A stretch of 64,000 bases of DNA from Gammaproteobacteria bacterium. Lineage in GTDB: Bacteria; Pseudomonadota; Gammaproteobacteria; Steroidobacterales; Steroidobacteraceae. The notes beneath the pieces were generated by a model. The model made no database searches. It was not told the origin of the DNA and was given only the letters and a program-made list of their open reading frames with translations. The stretch spans positions 653-64,652 of the forward strand of contig PKXS01000142.1 in NCBI GenBank assembly GCA_003132425.1. Direction: 5' to 3'. The position numbers and the translations under genes are program-made. This document shows, piece after piece, positions 3,026-64,000 of this stretch. Every line of letters starts with the position of its first letter. Position 1 is the first letter of the stretch.

Positions 3026-3925
3026 TCAAAGAGGCGGTCGCGGATGCATCCAGTGCTGCTGCAAAAAATCTACGAAGGCGCGCACCTTCGGCAGGAGCAG
3101 GCGGTTGCGCAGGGTTAGGATGCTCAATGGCGTGGGCGGCCGCTGATAGGCCTCGAGCACAATCCTAAGCCGGCCGTCAGCGAGACAATGCGCAACCTGC
3201 CAGGACGGCACTCGGATGAGCCCGGCCCCTGCCAAAGCCGCACTGACCAACGTATCGAAGTCATTGGCGCAAAGCCGGGTTGGAATGCGCAGAGATCTTC
3301 GCACTGCCCCGTCTTGGAAGCTCCATTCCGCCACGCCTGGTGCATCGCCGAAGGCCAGGCAGTCCTGCTCGATCAGGTCGTCCGGCGTCGCCGGCTCGCC
3401 GCGCCGGCGCAGATAATCCGGCGCGGCGCAGACAACAAGCTGGATGTCGTCGAGCTTGCGGACAATTAGACCTGAGTCTTCCAGCGGTCCAATGCGAAGG
3501 GCAACATCGATACCTTCCTCGGCAAGACGTACCGGTCGATCCACCAGCATCAGATCGACCGAGACCCGAGTCTGCTCCACCAGAAAGCCGGGCAGCATTG
3601 GCGCCAACCGCAACCGACCGAGCAGCGACGGAGCGCTCACATGCAACCGACCGGACGCGACTCCCGTCTGCATCGTCAGGCCGCGTTCCATCTCGGCGAT
3701 TTCCTCCAAAATCTGCTTCGCCCGTTCGTAGTAGAGTCGACCGGACTCGGTCAGCGAGAGATGGCGCGTCGTCCTCTCGACAAGCGTGGTGTCGAGGACC
3801 TCTTCGAGTGCCATGAGTTGGCGGCTGACGGAGGTCAGAGAAAGACCCAACTGACGGCCTGCGGCCGACAGGCTCCCAGCATCCGCAATCCTAACGAACA
3901 CCCGCATCGCCGCGAACTTGTCCAT
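3026..3925 (-). CDS. LysR-family transcriptional regulator
   Basis: 299 aa. N-terminal wHTH (FVRIADAGSLSAAGRQLGLSLTSVSRQLMALE) followed by a LysR substrate-binding domain. Divergent from 4038..5033. Confidence 0.9.
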   Translation of the reverse strand: MDKFAAMRVFVRIADAGSLSAAGRQLGLSLTSVSRQLMALEEVLDTTLVERTTRHLSLTESGRLYYERAKQILEEIAEMERGLTMQTGVASGRLHVSAPSLLGRLRLAPMLPGFLVEQTRVSVDLMLVDRPVRLAEEGIDVALRIGPLEDSGLIVRKLDDIQLVVCAAPDYLRRRGEPATPDDLIEQDCLAFGDAPGVAEWSFQDGAVRRSLRIPTRLCANDFDTLVSAALAGAGLIRVPSWQVAHCLADGRLRIVLEAYQRPPTPLSILTLRNRLLLPKVRAFVDFLQQHWMHPRPPL

Positions 3926-4037
3926 GGGCGTATTATCGCGAAAAACGGGAAGATGTCTCGCTAAATCTACAGATACTCACCAAAACCGGGAGACTCTATG
4001 ATGTCGATCGTGGGAGGACAGAACAGAGGAGCGAGCG

Positions 4038-5033
4038 ATGAAGATCTGCGTATTCGGCGCCGGGGCGATCGGCGGTTACATGGCGGGGGAACTCGCATTG
4101 GCGGGCCATGAAGTGTGTGCAATTGCCCGCGGTGCGCATCTGGCGGCCATTCGGAGCCACGGGCTCAAGTTAATCGTGGAGGGACAGACGCGCACGGTAG
4201 ACTTGCCGGCGAGCGACGACCCCGCGACGTTCGGCCCGCAGGACGTCGTGATCTGCGCGCTGAAGGCGCAGCAGGCCCACGCCAGCGCGGGCGCGTTCGC
4301 TCCGCTCCTCGGTCCGCGCACCGCCGTTCTCACCGCGATGAATGGCATTCCCTGGTGGTATTTCTACAAGGAGCGCGGCCCGCTAGATGGCCATCATTTG
4401 GAAAGCGTCGATCCCGGCGCCGCGCAATGGAACGCGATTGGACCCGAGCGCGCCATCGGGTGTGTCGTCGATCCCGCCTGCGAGGTCGTGGCACCCGGGG
4501 TCATCGAACATCGCTTGTTCAAGCGCTTCACCATCGGCGAACCCGACGGCTCCGCCTCTGACCGCATCGTGGCCCTGCGCGATGCCCTGGTTTCGGCCGG
4601 CTTCGATGCACCGATCCGCGACACGATCCGCTGGAACATCTGGCTCAAGCTGTGGGGCAACGTCTGTTTCAACCCGATCAGCGCCCTTACCCTCGCGACT
4701 CTGGATCGCGTAACCTCCGAGCCCGGCCTCCGCGCCCTATGCAACTCCATGATGGCCGAAGCCCACGCGATAACTACATCGCTCGGTCTCACCATTCCAG
4801 AACAAATGATGGAGAGGCGACTGAACGCAGCCGGTTCCGTCGTCGGTCACAAAATTTCAATGCTGCAAGATCTCGAACGAGGCCGATCCCTAGAGATCGA
4901 TGCACTCGTCACCGCCGTCCAGGAAATGGGCCGCCTCGTCAAGGTCGCAACACCAACGATCGACACGGTGCTTGCGTTGGTACAAGAACGTGGCCGGCAG
5001 GCTGGACTCTACGGCAATGATGCCCAGCGCTAA
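4038..5033 (+). CDS. 2-dehydropantoate 2-reductase family (PanE/ApbA-like) oxidoreductase
   Basis: 331 aa. N-terminal Rossmann MKICVFGAGAIGG and ketopantoate-reductase-like C-terminal domain. Divergent LysR partner. Confidence 0.82.
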   Translation: MKICVFGAGAIGGYMAGELALAGHEVCAIARGAHLAAIRSHGLKLIVEGQTRTVDLPASDDPATFGPQDVVICALKAQQAHASAGAFAPLLGPRTAVLTAMNGIPWWYFYKERGPLDGHHLESVDPGAAQWNAIGPERAIGCVVDPACEVVAPGVIEHRLFKRFTIGEPDGSASDRIVALRDALVSAGFDAPIRDTIRWNIWLKLWGNVCFNPISALTLATLDRVTSEPGLRALCNSMMAEAHAITTSLGLTIPEQMMERRLNAAGSVVGHKISMLQDLERGRSLEIDALVTAVQEMGRLVKVATPTIDTVLALVQERGRQAGLYGNDAQR

Positions 5034-58036: not shown

Positions 58037-58675
58037 CTAGAAGGCCCAGGTCACGCCCACCGTCACCGCATCGGGATTGCCGCCGGTTTGATCGATGCGT
58101 TCGTATTCGGCGCGGACCGCGAAACCGGGAAAGAATTTCGCTTGTATGCCGACGCCGTAGGCAAAATCCGTGTTCCACTGATTTTGGCGGTACGGCGTCC
58201 CGCTCGGCTGCGTGCACACTCCACTGGGAGCGCAGCCCGAGTTCACAAATCCGCTGATGTCGGATTGCAGGCGCGCGACACCCAATTTGCCGTAGACGTC
58301 CAACAACGGCACCGGTATGGGCAAGTAGCCGACGGCGAATAACGCGGTAGCCGTCGGATGGTCGTTCTGGCCAAAATAATTATTGCTGTTATATCCGTAG
58401 CCGGTGCCGGGGTTGCCGAAGTCGATGTATTCCAACTCAGCTCCCACAGGGGCAATTGGCCGCACGCCGGCCATCACCTTCCATGCAGCGTGGTGCTCAT
58501 CATAGTAGCCGGGGTAGCCAAAATCGTACGGCGCATTATTGTTCCTGACATTGGATTCACCGAACCCGGCGCCGATATAGAAGCCGATCGGATTCAGTGG
58601 GTCGGCTAATGCCGTCGAGGCGCAACCGGCGCCCATAGCGAGGGCCGCGCATATGCCAGTTAACAATCTCTTCAT
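58037..58675 (-). CDS. Outer-membrane beta-barrel protein (OmpA-like barrel / PF13505-like)
   Basis: ATG at 58675 (MKRLLTGICAALAMGAGCASTALA). Aromatic-girdle strands, C-terminal VGVTWAF. Confidence 0.75.
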   Translation of the reverse strand: MKRLLTGICAALAMGAGCASTALADPLNPIGFYIGAGFGESNVRNNNAPYDFGYPGYYDEHHAAWKVMAGVRPIAPVGAELEYIDFGNPGTGYGYNSNNYFGQNDHPTATALFAVGYLPIPVPLLDVYGKLGVARLQSDISGFVNSGCAPSGVCTQPSGTPYRQNQWNTDFAYGVGIQAKFFPGFAVRAEYERIDQTGGNPDAVTVGVTWAF

Positions 58676-58774
58676 GTGGAAACTCCTACAATGATCCATG
58701 TCCTATCGGACCGATGACCGATGACGGAAGTTCCAGTCGGCCTAGCCGACAGCAGCAGGCGCTATACTTCGCGA

Positions 58775-58981
58775 ATGAGGTATGCGTTGGCCTTTCTCCT
58801 GTTTGGCGCGGCCGAAATCCTCGCGGGGTGTGGCCAGAAGGGCCCTCTTGTGCATCCGGATGCGCACAAGCCCAAGGTAGTCACTCCGAGCGCTCCCGCT
58901 GCGCCGTCGGCCGCCGGGGCATCGCCCGTTTCGACGACGCAAAAGGACGACGCCAAGCCGGTCGCAGCGCCGCAGCCTTGA
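58775..58981 (+). CDS. Small lipoprotein, LptM/YifL-like
   Basis: ATG at 58775: MRYALAFLLFGAAEILAGCGQKGPL, the lipobox plus GCGxKGPL motif of YifL/LptM. Pro/Ala-rich tail. 68 aa. Confidence 0.6.
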   Translation: MRYALAFLLFGAAEILAGCGQKGPLVHPDAHKPKVVTPSAPAAPSAAGASPVSTTQKDDAKPVAAPQP

Positions 58982-59003
58982 GGTGAACACTTCTCCGGCT
59001 GCC

Positions 59004-61748
59004 ATGAACGCACTCAAACTCGTCCTCGTCGACGGCTCCTCGTATCTGTATCGAGCCTTTCATGCATTGCCGCCGCTCAACAATTCCAAGGGCGAGCCGA
59101 CCGGCGCTGTGCTCGGCGTGCTGAACATGCTGACCAAGCTGGTGAAGGATGAATCGCCGCAGCGGATCGCGGTGGTGTTCGATGCCCCGGGGCGCACTTT
59201 CCGAGACGATCTGTTCGATCAGTACAAGGCGCATCGCCCACCGATGCCCGATGATTTGCGCTCGCAAGTGCAACCGCTGCTGGATGCGGTCGAAGCGATG
59301 GGACTGCCGCTGCTGCGCATACCCGGCGTGGAAGCGGATGACGTCATCGGCACGCTTGCGAAGCAAGGCGCCGACGCGGGCTACGAGGTATTGATCTCGA
59401 CCGGCGACAAGGACATGGCGCAACTCGTCGGCCCGCGCATCGGGCTGATCAACACCATGAGCAATACGCGACTCGATCGCGATGGGGTGAAAGCCAAGTT
59501 CGATGTATTTCCTGAACAGATCGTCGACTATCTCGCGCTGGTCGGCGACAGCTCGGACAACATTCCGGGCGTCACCGGCGTGGGCCCCAAGACTGCGGCG
59601 AAGTGGCTGCTTCAATATCAGACTCTGGATGCATTGATCGCTCACGCCGGCGAGATCGGCGGCAAGGTGGGCGAGAACCTGCGCAACGAACTTGCGATCC
59701 TCGATCTGTCGCGCAGGCTCGCCACCATCGATATCGCGCTCAAGTTGTCGTTGACGCCCGAAGAACTTAGCGCAGGTCCGCCGGACCTGTCGCGGCTGCG
59801 GGAATTGTATGGGCGACTCGAGCTGCGTTCGCTACTCAAGTCTCTGGATGCGCCTGCGTCCGTCGACGCGCAAACGGAAAACACCTCGGCCGCAGGCCCA
59901 CCGAGCGCCGCCACGATGGCTCAACCCACTCAAGCGTCCGCTGGCGACTACCGGAAGATCGTCTCGCAGCAGGCAATGGACTCGTGGCTCGTCAGGCTCG
60001 CGGCGGCGGCGCTCGTTTCCTTCGACACCGAGACCGATAGCCTCGACTATATGCGCGCGCGAATCGTGGGTGTGTCGTTTGCAATCGCGCCGGGAGAAGC
60101 GGCTTACGTCCCGCTGACCCATGATTATGCGGGCGCGCCGGAGCAGCTTAATCTGGAAACAGTGTTGGCGGCGCTCAAACCCCTGCTGGAAGATGCCGCG
60201 AGACCCAAACTAGGACATCACCTCAAATACGACATGCATATCCTTGCGAACTACGGCATCGCGCTTGCCGGTCAGCGATATGATTCGATGTTGGAGTCCT
60301 ATGTGCTGGACAGCGTGGCGACGCGCCATGATATGGATTCGACCGCCGAGAAATATCTCGGCATCAAGACCATTCATTTCGAGGATGTCGCGGGAAAGGG
60401 TGCGAAGCAAATCACCTTCAACCAAGTCGATGTGGACCGGGCAACCGAATACTCCGCTGAGGACGCCGATGTGACTCTGCGGCTGCACCTGGCGCTATGG
60501 CCGAAAATCGAAGCGCTGCCGCGCTTGAAACAACTCTATGAGACCATCGAGCAACCGCTGGTCGCGGTGTTGTATCGCATGGAGCGCACCGGCGTGCTCG
60601 TGGATCCTGAACTTCTCAAGATACAGAGCGCGCAACTAGCCGCCCGCATGTTGGAGTTGCAGGCGCAGGCTCATATCGAGGCCGGCGGCGCATTCAATGT
60701 CGATTCACCGAAGCAACTGCAGGAGATTTTATTCGGCAAGCTCGGCATTCCGGTGATTCGCAAGACGCCCACAGGGCAGCCCTCGACGGCGGAGGATGTG
60801 CTCGAAGAGCTGGCCGCGGCGCATTCCTTGCCAAAATTGATTTTGGAATATCGCGGCGTCGCCAAACTCAAATCCACCTATACGGAGAAGCTGCCCGAGC
60901 AGATCAATCCGCAGACCGGGCGCATCCACACTTCTTATCATCAAGGCGTCGCCGCCACGGGCAGGCTCTCTTCGACCGACCCGAATCTGCAAAACATCCC
61001 GATCCGCACGCCGGAGGGGCGGCGCATCCGCCAGGCCTTCGTGGCGCCGCCGGGGCATTCGCTCATCGCCGCCGATTACTCGCAAATCGAATTGCGCATC
61101 ATGGCGCATCTGTCCGGCGACGAGGCCCTATTGCGAGCCTTCGCCGAGGATCGCGACATTCACCGGGCGACCGCAGCGGAGGTGTTCGGCACCTCGCTCG
61201 CGGCGGTCAGTGCCGATCAGCGACGCTCCGCCAAAGCAATCAACTTCGGCTTGATTTACGGAATGTCGGCTTTCGGACTTGCGCGTCAATTAGGGATAGG
61301 GCGCGGCGAAGCGCAAAAATATGTGGAGCTTTACTTCGAGCGCTATCCCGGCGTGAAGCGCTATATGGACGAGACACGCCGCCAGGCGCGCGAGGCGGGC
61401 TTCGTGGAAACGGTATTTGGCCGCAGGCTATATCTGCCTGAAATTCAGTCCCGCAACCAGGCGCTGCGCCAGTATGCGGAACGCAGCGCCATCAACGCAC
61501 CCATGCAGGGAACGGCTGCCGATATTATCAAGCGCGCCATGATCGACGTCGATGCGTGGCTGCAGAGTTCGCGCGTCCCCGCGCGGCTGATCATGCAAGT
61601 CCACGATGAATTGGTGCTGGAGGCGGCGGACTCGGCGGTCCAGTCGGTGTCGGAGCAATTGCGTGAACGGATGGCGAATGCGGCGCAGCTCAAGGTGCCG
61701 CTCAAAGTCGATGTGGGCGTCGGCCGCAATTGGGACGAAGCGCACTAA
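59004..61748 (+). CDS. polA: DNA polymerase I
   Basis: MNALKLVLVDGSSYLYRAFHA (5' nuclease), 3'-5' exonuclease FDTETDSL, polymerase motifs DYSQIELR and QVHDEL. Track start GTG 58983 is an alternative. Confidence 0.97.
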   Translation: MNALKLVLVDGSSYLYRAFHALPPLNNSKGEPTGAVLGVLNMLTKLVKDESPQRIAVVFDAPGRTFRDDLFDQYKAHRPPMPDDLRSQVQPLLDAVEAMGLPLLRIPGVEADDVIGTLAKQGADAGYEVLISTGDKDMAQLVGPRIGLINTMSNTRLDRDGVKAKFDVFPEQIVDYLALVGDSSDNIPGVTGVGPKTAAKWLLQYQTLDALIAHAGEIGGKVGENLRNELAILDLSRRLATIDIALKLSLTPEELSAGPPDLSRLRELYGRLELRSLLKSLDAPASVDAQTENTSAAGPPSAATMAQPTQASAGDYRKIVSQQAMDSWLVRLAAAALVSFDTETDSLDYMRARIVGVSFAIAPGEAAYVPLTHDYAGAPEQLNLETVLAALKPLLEDAARPKLGHHLKYDMHILANYGIALAGQRYDSMLESYVLDSVATRHDMDSTAEKYLGIKTIHFEDVAGKGAKQITFNQVDVDRATEYSAEDADVTLRLHLALWPKIEALPRLKQLYETIEQPLVAVLYRMERTGVLVDPELLKIQSAQLAARMLELQAQAHIEAGGAFNVDSPKQLQEILFGKLGIPVIRKTPTGQPSTAEDVLEELAAAHSLPKLILEYRGVAKLKSTYTEKLPEQINPQTGRIHTSYHQGVAATGRLSSTDPNLQNIPIRTPEGRRIRQAFVAPPGHSLIAADYSQIELRIMAHLSGDEALLRAFAEDRDIHRATAAEVFGTSLAAVSADQRRSAKAINFGLIYGMSAFGLARQLGIGRGEAQKYVELYFERYPGVKRYMDETRRQAREAGFVETVFGRRLYLPEIQSRNQALRQYAERSAINAPMQGTAADIIKRAMIDVDAWLQSSRVPARLIMQVHDELVLEAADSAVQSVSEQLRERMANAAQLKVPLKVDVGVGRNWDEAH

Positions 61749-61908
61749 CTTGGGTCCGGCCGAGTGCTGACCGTCCGGTGTAGGACTAATCTTACTTTGG
61801 TGTTACGCGGCGGGGATTTTGACGGTTTTCCACACACTAATTCATATTTCTTTGCATATCAGGCACCTGGCAATCGAGCCGGCGCGGATTATTGTCTGCT
61901 GTAGGACT

Positions 61909-61936
61909 GGAACTTTTGCGAGGCATCCCCATCTAA
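61909..61936 (+). promoter_or_regulatory. Sigma-E (RpoE/AlgU)-type promoter
   Basis: GGAACTT (61909-61915), a 16-nt spacer, then TCTAA (61932-61936). Compare the consensus GGAACTT-N16-TCnaA. Confidence 0.55.
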
Positions 61937-61942
61937 TCTCAT

Positions 61943-62060
61943 GAGCGTTAACGACGCTCCCCGCTCCTCTCCCTGAGCGGGAATGACCCGGTTTGTCATC
62001 CCCATGCCGGGTTGGTCTGCCTCGGTGGTTGCTTCCAAGCGCCCACCGGGGCCTTTTTTT
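61943..62060 (+). ncRNA. Candidate sigma-E-dependent small RNA in the polA-engB spacer (Spot42/ErsA position)
   Basis: About 118 nt between the promoter and a terminator. Stems GAGCG/CGCTC (61943-59) and CCCGCTC/GAGCGGG (61960-81) with a CUCUCCCU loop. Terminator CCTCGGTGG (62020-28)/CCACCGGGG (62043-51) plus T7 (62054-60). Confidence 0.45.
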
Positions 62061-62649
62061 ATGCGACGGCCAACCAGCGGTCCATGACTTGGCGCGCGTC
62101 TTCAAATCCCTGCTTTGCATGCGCGGAAAATAACTGCACAGTCACCGCGGTGTCGGCGCACGCCGCGATGGTTTCTCGCAACACTTGTTGCGAATCACGG
62201 CGGTTCAATTTATCGGCTTTCGTCAGCAGCACATGCGCTGAGCGGTCCCGTGCGAGCGCCCATTCGAGCATCGCAGCGTCTTGCTCGCCAAGTCCGCGAC
62301 GGCTGTCGACGATGAGAATCAATCCCACCAGCGACTCGCGTACGTTGAAATAGTGCTCCATCAATTCCAACCAATGCAGGCGTATCCTCTGCGGCACCTT
62401 GGCGAACCCGTAGCCCGGCAAATCGACCAATCGGCGCTCAGGCGCCAATTCGAAGAAATTGATCAGCTGCGTGCGGCCCGGTGTCCTGCTGACCCGCGCA
62501 AGACCTGCACGCTGAGTAATCGCATTGATTGCGGATGATTTGCCGGAATTGGACCGACCGGCAAAGGCGATTTCCCGTCCCGTGTCCGGCGCCAGTTGAT
62601 ACGCCTCGGCGGCACTCGTCACGAATTTCACCTGGGAGTAAGTCGACAT
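62059..62649 (-). CDS. engB: Ribosome-biogenesis GTPase EngB/YihA
   Basis: 196 aa. G1 GRSNSGKSSAIN, G3 DLPGYG, G4 TKADK. Confidence 0.93.
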   Translation of the reverse strand: MSTYSQVKFVTSAAEAYQLAPDTGREIAFAGRSNSGKSSAINAITQRAGLARVSRTPGRTQLINFFELAPERRLVDLPGYGFAKVPQRIRLHWLELMEHYFNVRESLVGLILIVDSRRGLGEQDAAMLEWALARDRSAHVLLTKADKLNRRDSQQVLRETIAACADTAVTVQLFSAHAKQGFEDARQVMDRWLAVA

Positions 62650-62735
62650 GGCCGCCGCCTGGACGCAATTTATTGACTGTAGTGTACAATTTGGGACGAA
62701 TAACGGTTCACTTTAGAATGGGGACAGAGGCGATC

Positions 62736-63344
62736 ATGAAGCGGTTTTGGATTCTTGCGGCGATGATTTCCGGCTCCATCGTCAGCAGCGCGGCGCTATC
62801 TGCCGGCAACGTCGAGACCGGCGCAACCAAGGCCGTTGTGTGCCAGGCGTGTCACGGTGCGAATGGCAACAGCACGAATCCCCAGTGGCCCAGCCTGGCG
62901 GGCATCGGCGCGGATTACATCGCCGAGCAGCTGCAGAATTTTAAGTCGGGAAAACGCAACAATCCCGTCATGATGCCGAATGCGATGACTTTGAGCGCGG
63001 ACGACATGGCCAATCTAGGCGCGTACTTTGACAGCTTGGTCAATACCGGGCTGGAAGCGGATCCGTCATATTGGCAAGCGGGCGAGAAGCTTTATCGCGG
63101 CGGGGACAAGGCCCGCGAAATTCCGGCCTGCATGGCTTGTCACGGCCCGTCCGGTCGCGGCAACGAACCTGCGAAATTTCCGGCACTTCGCGGCCAGCAA
63201 TCAGTCTACGTGGCAAAGCAGTTGAACGACTATGCGTCCGGCGCCCGTACGACGAGTCCGAACGGCATCATGGAGACCATCGCCAAACGGCTCTCCGCCG
63301 AAGATATTCGAAATCTCGCTTCCTATGTGCAGGGGATACGCTGA
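62736..63344 (+). CDS. Di-haem cytochrome c4
   Basis: Trimmed to the ATG at 62736 (MKRFWILAAMISGS...). Two CxxCH motifs (CQACHG, CMACHG) with distal Met regions. 202 aa. Confidence 0.9.
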   Translation: MKRFWILAAMISGSIVSSAALSAGNVETGATKAVVCQACHGANGNSTNPQWPSLAGIGADYIAEQLQNFKSGKRNNPVMMPNAMTLSADDMANLGAYFDSLVNTGLEADPSYWQAGEKLYRGGDKAREIPACMACHGPSGRGNEPAKFPALRGQQSVYVAKQLNDYASGARTTSPNGIMETIAKRLSAEDIRNLASYVQGIR

Positions 63345-63345
63345 A

Positions 63346-64000
63346 ATGTGGGCCCGACAACTGGTATTGCTCTTCAGTCTGGCGTTCGTACTAGCTGCCT
63401 GCGGCAGACAGCAATCGGCGGATTTAGGATCAAATCCCAACAGCCCCGGGGCCGCTGCGACATCGCCGGCAACGGCCGGCTCGCAAAAGGCGCGCGCGTC
63501 GGCCGCGGAATCCTCGAAGATTACGATTGCCAACGAAGACGGCTCCGAGAAGGTCGAGGATACGACCGGCGACAACGGCGCGCATAATCCGCTGCTGGCC
63601 GCAGTCGCCTCGACGGTCGCCGCCGCGACAGCATCAGCGTCGGCCGCCACCACCACCGGACCCACGCTGTGGCAGGAAGGGGTCAATTACACGCGGCTCG
63701 TGCCGGCACAACCCACCGCGGTGCCCGCGGGGCAGGTCGAAGTCTTGGAATTTTTCTGGTATGCGTGTCCACACTGCTATGCGATCGACCCACTGGTCGA
63801 ATCGTGGAAGAAAACCAAGCCGGCATACATCAGCTTCTCGCGTGTTCACGTGATGTGGAGCGAGGGACACCGCTCGCTGGCACGGCTCTATTACACGCTG
63901 GAGAGCCTCGGTAAGTTGAATCAGCTGCACGGCGAGGTGTTCAAGGAGATTCACGTCAACGGCAATCCCTTGGTCGCGAGCGATCCGAACGACGTTGCGG
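63346..64000 (+). CDS. dsbA: Thiol:disulfide interchange protein DsbA, lipoprotein form (3' end outside window)
   Basis: Not in the track because there is no stop in the window. ATG 63346, lipobox LAAC, low-complexity linker of about 100 aa, then FFWYACPHCY thioredoxin active site. Synteny engB-cyt c4-dsbA. Confidence 0.85.
   Translation, partial: MWARQLVLLFSLAFVLAACGRQQSADLGSNPNSPGAAATSPATAGSQKARASAAESSKITIANEDGSEKVEDTTGDNGAHNPLLAAVASTVAAATASASAATTTGPTLWQEGVNYTRLVPAQPTAVPAGQVEVLEFFWYACPHCYAIDPLVESWKKTKPAYISFSRVHVMWSEGHRSLARLYYTLESLGKLNQLHGEVFKEIHVNGNPLVASDPNDVA

Follow-up and report, generated by a model that had tools for sequence, protein, structure and literature searches.

What does the spacer between polA and engB encode in an uncultured soil gammaproteobacterium, and how is it related to the small RNAs (sRNAs) that occupy the same spacer in other genomes? 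We addressed this question in a 64,000-nucleotide (nt) stretch of a Steroidobacteraceae genome (contig PKXS01000142.1 of assembly GCA_003132425.1; hereafter the window, meaning the whole stretch), for which an earlier note had proposed a plus-strand sRNA gene that is a positional analogue of Spot 42 and ErsA, two RNAs that Rfam does place in the polA–engB spacer of other genomes. At this position lies a conserved RNA gene whose anatomy, conservation, four covarying helices, strand and linkage to engB are documented here. It is probably an independently transcribed, trans-acting, stress-induced sRNA gene of about 120 nt, belonging to an old family of Beta- and Gammaproteobacteria that includes the anti-hemB and sX13 RNAs.

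A structured RNA gene between polA and engB

The spacer measures 310 bp, as previously given and as confirmed by Pfam-anchored gene coordinates. The elements in and beside it are as follows.

61941..62060, plus strand: predicted sRNA of about 118–120 nt, its start placed at the purine 61941 or 61943 (106 bits with covariance model R1, described below)
61943..61959, plus strand: SL1, a 7-bp hairpin, GAGCGUU-AAC-GACGCUC (4 of 6 consensus pairs compensatory)
61960..61981, plus strand: SL2, stem CCCGCUC/GAGCGGG with the C-rich loop CUCUCCCU (61967–61974), near-invariant in 36 gammaproteobacterial copies
61985..62013, plus strand: SL3, loop UCAUCCCCA with CCCC at 62000–62003 (from the fold; the stem covaries)
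62019..62060, plus strand: intrinsic terminator, a hairpin at 62019–62052 and then U7 at 62054–62060 (from the fold; 9 of 12 pairs compensatory)
61909..61915, plus strand: −35 box GGAACTT of sigma-E/AlgU type, read directly, matching the E. coli sigma-E consensus
61932..61936, plus strand: −10 box TCTAA, read directly, 16 nt after the −35 box, fitting TCAAA (E. coli) and TCtgA (AlgU)
58983..61748, plus strand: polA (DNA polymerase I; Pfam DNA_pol_A, 5′–3′ and 3′–5′ exonuclease domains), upstream neighbour of the sRNA
62059..62649, minus strand: engB/yihA GTPase gene (Pfam MMR_HSR1), convergent with the sRNA

Conservation was assessed in 80 loci fetched by way of the PolA C-terminus, among which the nearest PolA relatives came from uncultured gammaproteobacterial metagenome-assembled genomes (MAGs; 84–86% identity), followed by Steroidobacteraceae and Woeseiaceae. 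A profile search with positions 61900–62062 recovered a plus-strand homologue downstream of polA in 35 other gammaproteobacterial loci; because the element is conserved with covariation in all of these, it stands beyond chance, and the proposal of a discrete plus-strand RNA gene in this spacer gains support. The sequence from 61943 to 62060 folds into four hairpins at −61.2 kcal/mol, compared with −39.2 ± 3.6 for shuffles (z = −6.2), and RNAalifold recovered the four helices from the 36-copy alignment, with compensatory changes in 22 of the 31 pairs. In the structure named here, 94.1% of cells are paired (84.7% in column shuffles, 31–47% with slid partners), and the covariation score of 0.372, against 0.187, was exceeded in none of 500 shuffles. 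G–U cells far outnumber A–C cells (101 versus 17), which identifies the plus strand as the RNA strand. A covariance model, R1, was built from the 36 gammaproteobacterial copies alone; in a 77-member family alignment fitted to it, which leans towards the R1 structure, 30 of the 31 pairs show compensatory changes and 92% of cells pair.

Where the earlier note described two GC stems ahead of the terminator, three hairpins (SL1, SL2 and SL3) were found. Compensatory variants of SL1 include GAGUGC/GCACUC and GAACGC/GCGUUC in place of GAGCG/CGCUC. On the alignment, SL2 is the signature hairpin of the family, and its loop, CUCUCCCU, which contains a CCC run, agrees with the C-rich, anti-Shine–Dalgarno-like loop that had been described. 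The SL3 loop, with its CCCC, varies by lineage, reading CAUCCCCA or GAGACCUG. The intrinsic terminator was correctly proposed, but its stem, given as 9 bp at 62020–62051, comprises 10 pairs (62019–62028 with 62043–62052, one of them G–U) and 4 inner pairs. Its loop in the window, UUGCUUCCAAGCGC, is free of a C run; many relatives carry CCCC there. The last two bases of the U7 run overlap the engB stop codon, so that the terminator does sit at the end of engB as claimed, and since the hairpin has no U run on the minus strand, it terminates plus-strand transcription. A simple terminator scan with a loop limit of 8 nt missed this terminator because the loop is longer than that; the two sites it did report lie inside engB and are irrelevant here.

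A sigma-E-type promoter at the locus

Upstream of the RNA, the near-consensus extracytoplasmic-stress promoter that had been proposed, GGAACTT-N16-TCTAA at 61909–61936, is read directly and is conserved across the 36 loci. Its geometry is that of a sigma-E promoter (−35 GGAACTT, a spacer of 16–17 nt, TCNNA and a purine about 6 nt further on), with purines at 61941 (A) and 61943 (G), 5–7 nt past the −10 box. For E. coli sigma-E the published consensus is GGAACTT/TCAAA, with transcription starting at a purine (PMC1312014), and for AlgU it is GAACTT-N16/17-TCtgA (PMC10651043). Mean column identity over the 36 polA loci is 84% in the −35 box, 83% in the −10 box and 81% across SL1–SL2, compared with 44% in the promoter spacer and 40% upstream of the −35 box; conserved boxes around a divergent spacer, with a structured RNA behind them, form a promoter footprint. 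When the window is compared with the three closest genomes, the similar stretch sets in abruptly a few bases before GGAACTT, and the polA-proximal 160 bp have diverged.

The pattern GGAACTT-N15-17-TCNNA has two matches on both strands of the 64 kb (0.13 expected; two or more in 0 of 100 shuffles). The other exact match, GGAACTT-N17-TCCGA at 58734–58706 on the minus strand, lies about 25 nt before an AGGAG ribosome-binding site, in the geometry expected of a promoter. The gene behind it (58037–58675, minus strand, divergent from polA) encodes an OmpA-like 8-strand β-barrel outer-membrane protein (OMP), its likely true start being the ATG at 58675 (MKRLL... signal peptide), and is a candidate sigma-E-dependent OMP gene. 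The presence of an envelope gene behind the second motif fits a working sigma-E-type regulon in this organism.

A further repeat was seen in the same spacer. The sequence TGTAGGAC occurs only twice in the 64 kb, at 61779–61786 and 61900–61907 (plus strand), 121 nt apart and both between polA and the sRNA; the second copy abuts the −35 box, and the first is kept in L001 and L002, the closest genomes. The pair may represent a regulator site or a relic of duplication. The idea that it marks a decayed second promoter was rejected, the first copy having no usable −10 box after it.

A family that joins anti-hemB and sX13

At gathering scores, no Rfam family matched anywhere in the window. A relaxed-threshold Rfam search covered 61700–62120, and the ErsA and Spot 42 covariance models, which the earlier note had suggested as a check, do not recognise the RNA; the best match was instead anti-hemB (RF02837; 41.9 bits, E = 1.5 × 10−8, positions 61958–62060, below the gathering score of 49.5), followed by sX13 (RF02232; 21.0 bits, E = 0.069, below the gathering score of 50). 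In the same genomic slot, sX13 was detected in Aerolutibacter as a positive control.

The alignment to anti-hemB is carried by SL2, with a posterior probability near 1, as well as by the terminator. Positions 61960–61981 show the anti-hemB 5′ hairpin pattern (CCCGCU/GAGCGGG with a C/U-rich loop ending in CUCCCU), and the SL2 pattern of the window matches exactly the one that retrieves the copies in Burkholderiales, Rhodocyclales and Methylophilales. As in anti-hemB, a near-identical first hairpin is followed by a second hairpin (SL3) and a terminator with U7, engB is convergent, and the RNA is not a 5′ untranslated region (UTR), since engB lies on the opposite strand; a sigma-E-like promoter is common to most members outside the Comamonadaceae. 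The window RNA differs in its gammaproteobacterial rather than betaproteobacterial host, in its neighbours (polA and engB, with polA and not hemB upstream, and hence no placement upstream of or antisense to hemB) and in a longer SL3 with a CCCC loop. The Rfam anti-hemB model omits the 5′ hairpin SL1, though SL1 occurs in both groups. Among relatives of the window RNA, the same model gives 51.9 bits in a Steroidobacteraceae locus (L011), which passes the gathering score, and 48.3 and 42.6 bits in L004 and L249. A scan of species-representative genomes with the SL2 pattern found at least 120 contigs, mostly from Betaproteobacteria; the matches listed came mostly from Burkholderiales, Rhodocyclales, Methylophilales and Gallionellaceae, and also from Steroidobacteraceae, Rudaea and Immundisolibacter. 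The family includes RNAs with experimental support: ncS04 of Burkholderia cenocepacia J2315 is a Northern-confirmed sRNA of 105 nt that is reported to be Hfq-bound (PMC5688073).

The second relative, sX13, lies downstream of polA on the same strand and has three stable stems with apical C-rich (4C/5C) loops (PMC3771888). The window RNA resembles it in this placement and strand, in a length of about 115–120 nt and, as far as SL2 and SL3 are concerned, in stable stems with apical C-rich loops. It differs in that the loop 1 hairpin of sX13 is unlike SL2 in sequence, the annotated 5′ end of sX13 falls inside the SL1 of other lineages, and the downstream gene in Xanthomonas encodes a hypothetical protein and not engB; sX13 is also reported to be Hfq-independent and constitutive. 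The R1 alignments begin about 11 nt before the Rfam 5′ end of sX13 and so take in a further hairpin (GACAGG/CCUGUC), which lies across the annotated start. Accumulation of sX13 rises at high salt and at 37 °C. Its describers considered it confined to the Xanthomonadaceae and asked whether other polA loci encode related sRNAs (PMC3771888).

Scores with R1 connect the window RNA to both groups. R1 detects betaproteobacterial anti-hemB RNAs, including relatives of ncS04, at 30–65 bits and every Lysobacterales sX13 tested at 25–60 bits (106 bits for the window RNA itself). Intermediate copies score well with both R1 and the sX13 model, at 60.1 and 57.2 bits, respectively, in Rudaea (L239), 55 and 53.3 bits in L234, and 43–53 and 43–49 bits in Rhodanobacteraceae. 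Because R1 and these intermediates score across both groups, the group of the window RNA joins anti-hemB and sX13 without a gap, and by model score the predicted RNA is a member of a wider family that contains the two. It falls below the curated score of each Rfam family and is therefore not filed as a formal member of any. In the searchable literature, sX13 is nowhere named together with anti-hemB or ErsA, and the link between anti-hemB and sX13, engB as the constant neighbour and the prevailing sigma-E-type promoter (see below) all appear to be unreported. One family member, at 2191–2300 in a Wenzhouxiangella MAG (L258), also gave a sub-threshold match (38.7 bits; gathering score 58.8) to the alphaproteobacterial ar14, another sRNA family with C-rich loops.

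Promoter class and gene neighbourhood across the family

To compare promoters among loci, a site was counted as sigma-E-like when TCNNA followed, after a spacer of 15–17 nt, a −35 box that has AAC at its core and differs from GGAACTT at no more than two positions. Of 135 loci, 74 have such a motif in the 90 nt preceding SL2 (against 0.6% of random windows), its −10 box mostly ending 19–27 nt before SL2. Among engB-linked loci the fraction is 71 of 84 under the strict or a slightly relaxed rule (background 0.6–1.5% of random 90-nt windows), and by this motif most engB-linked members keep a predicted envelope-stress-type promoter. In 22 of the 42 loci not linked to engB, mainly from Comamonadaceae, a sigma-70-like TTGAAA-N17-TAAATT was found. 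The sX13-type loci divide: Rudaea, Rhodanobacter, Lysobacter, Luteimonas and Thermomonas keep GAAC...TCNNA (L203, L207, L210, L239 and L253), and the boxes of Xanthomonas and Stenotrophomonas (L209, L212 and L229) look like decayed sigma-E sites (CGATCCA ... GTGTTA). In Paraburkholderia and Caballeronia, SL2 to the end of the U run measures 81 nt and the promoter reads GAAACTT-N17-TCATA; from these copies, the 105-nt ncS04 would start about 24 nt before SL2 and 6–7 nt after TCATA, as in the window.

Gene order separates the RNA from polA and from hemB. In Gammaproteobacteria polA lies upstream, as near as about 60 nt at some loci and as far away as about 2,400 nt at others, at times with one or more genes intervening; betaproteobacterial copies have hemB upstream and no polA nearby. 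The variable distance to polA and the presence of hemB upstream of the betaproteobacterial copies argue for independence from polA. In Burkholderiales hemB adjoins the RNA in divergent orientation, without overlap, and in Caballeronia (L147) the order is engB, convergent sRNA and divergent hemB (ALAD domain). By tblastn, 84 of 126 non-redundant loci from two classes have a convergent engB no more than 700 nt away from the RNA, with the engB stop codon usually 75–250 nt past SL2. Given the Caballeronia gene order and this linkage across loci, engB, and not hemB or polA, is the constant neighbour of the family. Comamonadaceae copies lie away from engB with the RNA sequence kept (L082, L088, L098, L110, L111, L118, L119 and others); these anti-hemB-type copies look like a relocation combined with a promoter swap.

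Comparison with ErsA, Spot 42 and other sigma-E sRNAs

Membership in the two families first named as analogues was rejected. The ErsA model Pseudomon-1 (RF01719, gathering score 50) was not listed at E ≤ 10 on 61700–62120, and Spot 42 (RF00021, gathering score 80) reached 15.4 bits (E = 2.1), which is noise level. In the same slot of other genomes, both served as positive controls: the ErsA model detected ErsA in Pseudomonas and Stutzerimonas (L079 and L080) at 105–120 bits, and Spot 42 was found in Yersinia and Edwardsiella.

The claimed match to ErsA in position and promoter class nevertheless stands, with the same spacer, the same strand and a conserved sigma-E/AlgU-type motif. Like the window RNA, ErsA lies in the polA–engB spacer and is transcribed towards engB; the ErsA promoter has been shown experimentally to depend on sigma-22/AlgU (PMC8575079). 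In Pseudomonas, Halopseudomonas and Endozoicomonas, a sigma-E-type motif lies ahead of ErsA, and GAACTT-N17-TCAGA is visible at the ErsA loci L080 and L028. As in the window RNA, the 5′ end of ErsA forms a hairpin and its 3′ end a terminator, the ErsA terminator having a C-rich loop, but ErsA has a U-rich unstructured interaction domain where the window RNA has the C-rich SL2 directly after SL1. With R1, ErsA loci give weak matches of 19–25 bits, always at the syntenic place, and the ErsA model in turn gives 34 bits for L052, a member of the family; homology of the window RNA and ErsA is possible on these scores. In an Endozoicomonas MAG (L072, about 3632–4180), the polA–engB spacer contains three tandem ErsA-like sRNA genes, each with its own GGAACTT-N16-TCTTA promoter, a conserved UACUCCUUGUGUGUUUAGUGUUGG stretch, C-rich loops and a terminator.

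Spot 42 (spf) of Enterobacterales and Vibrionales occupies the same polA–engB/yihA slot on the same strand and is of similar length. R1 found no match in Spot 42 loci, and no sigma-E motif was found there; Spot 42 is repressed by CRP–cAMP and has no C-rich loops. Among E. coli RNAs, MicA, RybB and MicL combine a sigma-E promoter with an Hfq-type sRNA and form the repressing arm of the envelope-stress response, a regulatory logic that the window RNA would share. They show no relation to the window RNA in sequence, structure or synteny and gave no Rfam matches, and their seeds are 5′-terminal single strands, in contrast to the C-rich hairpin loops seen here. By analogy, the window RNA would work like sX13 and be driven like ErsA, whose position it shares; in sequence and structure it is closest to anti-hemB/ncS04.

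Other RNAs of this slot were observed in Methylococcaceae, whose polA–engB spacers carry a sigma-E-type motif before unnamed RNAs of about 100–130 nt with C-rich loops. In L016 (about 3612–3745) and L075 (about 3616–3745), an RNA of about 100 nt follows GGAACTT-N16-TCATA/TCTCA and comprises two hairpins, one at the 5′ end and one with a CUCCCCCUG-type loop, ahead of a terminator; these two gave no Rfam match at gathering score and no R1 match.

Proposed function and alternative explanations

How might such an RNA act? An RpoE/AlgU-type envelope-stress holoenzyme would start transcription near 61941–61943, 5–7 nt after TCTAA, and the RNA would end at its own terminator, with a U-tail that would suit Hfq binding. 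The apical C-rich loops CUCUCCCU and UCAUCCCCA may then pair with G-rich, Shine–Dalgarno-like mRNA sites and lower translation, by analogy with sX13, which represses synthesis from mRNAs with G-rich motifs near the start codon, a repression that needs the C-rich motifs as well as the G-rich ones (PMC3771888). In this way, as other sigma-E-dependent sRNAs do, the sRNA would probably add a negative side to the sigma-E response, with envelope or respiratory proteins as possible targets.

Several points weigh against this proposal, beginning with scores below the gathering threshold for every Rfam family. ncS04 was unchanged in biofilm, stationary phase, starvation, osmotic stress, low pH and low iron (PMC5688073, Table 2), which is unlike a strongly stress-induced RNA, in a set of conditions that did not include envelope stress, and sX13 has been described as constitutively expressed and Hfq-independent (PMC3771888). 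A search of the window for rpoE with the E. coli protein as query gave no match, and the proposal presupposes that the organism has the sigma factor. The simple scan detected no intrinsic terminator ahead of the sRNA in the stretch that follows the polA stop codon (61748), so read-through from polA into the sRNA is possible. Lastly, a target search within the 64 kb gave nothing above chance: whole-RNA duplex folding was discarded, its background being as strong as its best matches, and a scan with 7-nt seeds from the three loops matched ribosome-binding sites about as often as expected by chance. One such match, AAUGGGGA at 62717–62724 (plus strand) in the ribosome-binding region of the cytochrome c4 gene (62736–63344), is complementary to UCCCCAU of the SL3 loop, and the closest genomes, L001 and L002, keep this complementarity as CAUGGGGUGACA. 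This complementarity was dropped as evidence, since distant loci show no covarying match and a 7-nt seed is expected by chance.

Four other readings of the locus were weighed. The RNA gene could be as described, with a promoter read by another extracytoplasmic-function (ECF) sigma factor that recognises a GAAC −35 box or by a housekeeping sigma factor, which would put it outside the envelope-stress response; we regard this as unlikely, though the least improbable of the four. An AAC-containing −35 box is shared by ECF sigma factors of several groups, and the promoter class does change within the family, to TTGAAA-N17-TAAATT in Comamonadaceae and to decayed boxes in Xanthomonas and Stenotrophomonas. 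The lack of ncS04 induction under the stresses tested points the same way, as does a weak sigma-70-like match upstream at 61819–61848. That match, however, is not kept even in the closest relatives, whereas the full GGAACTT-N16-TCNNA, including its −10 box, is the RpoE/AlgU signature, which 71 of the 84 engB-linked copies retain; moreover, the positional counterpart ErsA is sigma-22 dependent by experiment (PMC8575079), with the same motif at its loci. It is far less probable that no separate gene exists and that the hairpins are a structured 3′ UTR of polA with its terminator, from which a small RNA would arise by processing only. The terminator at 62019–62060 is the first detected downstream of the polA stop codon, as this reading would have it, yet conservation in the polA-proximal spacer is confined to the promoter boxes, and in many loci the RNA is set apart from polA by at least one gene or by as much as 2.4 kb. 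Betaproteobacterial copies, moreover, lack a polA in the vicinity and point away from hemB, and 5′ ends have been mapped for ncS04 and sX13 as RNAs in their own right.

We likewise give little credence to an action in cis on a neighbour, either as an antisense or convergent partner of the engB 3′ end or as a hemB antisense RNA of the kind proposed for anti-hemB. Convergence with engB in 84 of 126 loci from two classes, with the window terminator overlapping the engB stop codon, speaks for such a role; engB transcripts, in the absence of a minus-strand U run, could read into antisense of the RNA; hemB control has been discussed for anti-hemB (Weinberg 2007 and a 2026 preprint); and the SL3 loop could pair with the site AAUGGGGA at the neighbouring cytochrome c4 gene, a complementarity that L001 and L002 share. 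Against it, hemB is absent from the window locus, the Burkholderiales RNA is divergent from hemB without overlapping it, Comamonadaceae copies have left engB yet retain the RNA sequence, the conserved parts are the apical loops, as in the trans-acting sX13, and the cytochrome c4 complementarity is a chance-level seed without covariation in distant loci. A small protein, finally, could be encoded by one of the open reading frames (ORFs) at 61842–62120 (minus), 61889–62038 (minus) or 61993–62133 (plus), which appear in a mechanical ORF list, or by an 11-codon ATG ORF at 61941. This was rejected on the substitution pattern and is hardly credible: substitutions in the stems are compensatory, loop insertions and deletions are not multiples of three, and the ATG at 61941 is ACG, TTG, GCG or CCG in relatives. 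An independently transcribed, trans-acting sRNA under a sigma-E-type promoter is the reading that we prefer.

Neighbouring genes

Two further ORFs flank the region. Directly before polA, a small lipoprotein ORF at 58774–58983 (plus strand; MRYALAFLLFGAAEILAGCGQKGPL...) has no Pfam match; its lipobox and GCGxKGPL motif are reminiscent of LptM/YifL. At the other end, an ORF at 63346–64000 (plus strand) is cut by the window end and has a lipoprotein-like signal (LAAC) and a long Ala/Thr/Ser-rich linker, after which FFWYACPHCY contains a DsbA-type CPHC active site; the incomplete product has no Pfam match. This active site lends support to the gene order engB–cytochrome c4–dsbA given in the earlier note.

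Implications

Standard Rfam annotation would leave this sRNA from an uncultured soil gammaproteobacterium unlabelled. Its value is as a linking member, through which the separately curated anti-hemB and sX13 form one continuous family, and the name anti-hemB, with the proposed role as a hemB antisense RNA, is probably misleading. These additions (the family link, the engB neighbour and the state of the promoter) are modest and testable and do not amount to a new kind of element. If the sigma-E reading is true, RNAs of the ncS04 and sX13 types should respond to RpoE in Burkholderia, Lysobacter, Stenotrophomonas and Rhodanobacter, models for which experimental tools exist.

More tentatively, and with somewhat less than even confidence, we suggest that the engB-convergent sRNAs of Beta- and Gammaproteobacteria may share one ancestral sigma-E-dependent sRNA gene. 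Its descendants may include anti-hemB/ncS04, sX13, the window RNA with its Steroidobacteraceae and Woeseiaceae relatives, the Methylococcales RNA, ErsA and perhaps Spot 42, and separate swaps or losses of the promoter may have taken place in Comamonadaceae, in Xanthomonas and Stenotrophomonas, and in Enterobacterales and Vibrionales. A single origin, if true, predicts sigma-E control of sX13-type and ncS04-type RNAs, so far unreported, and would make this locus one of the oldest conserved sRNA loci known.

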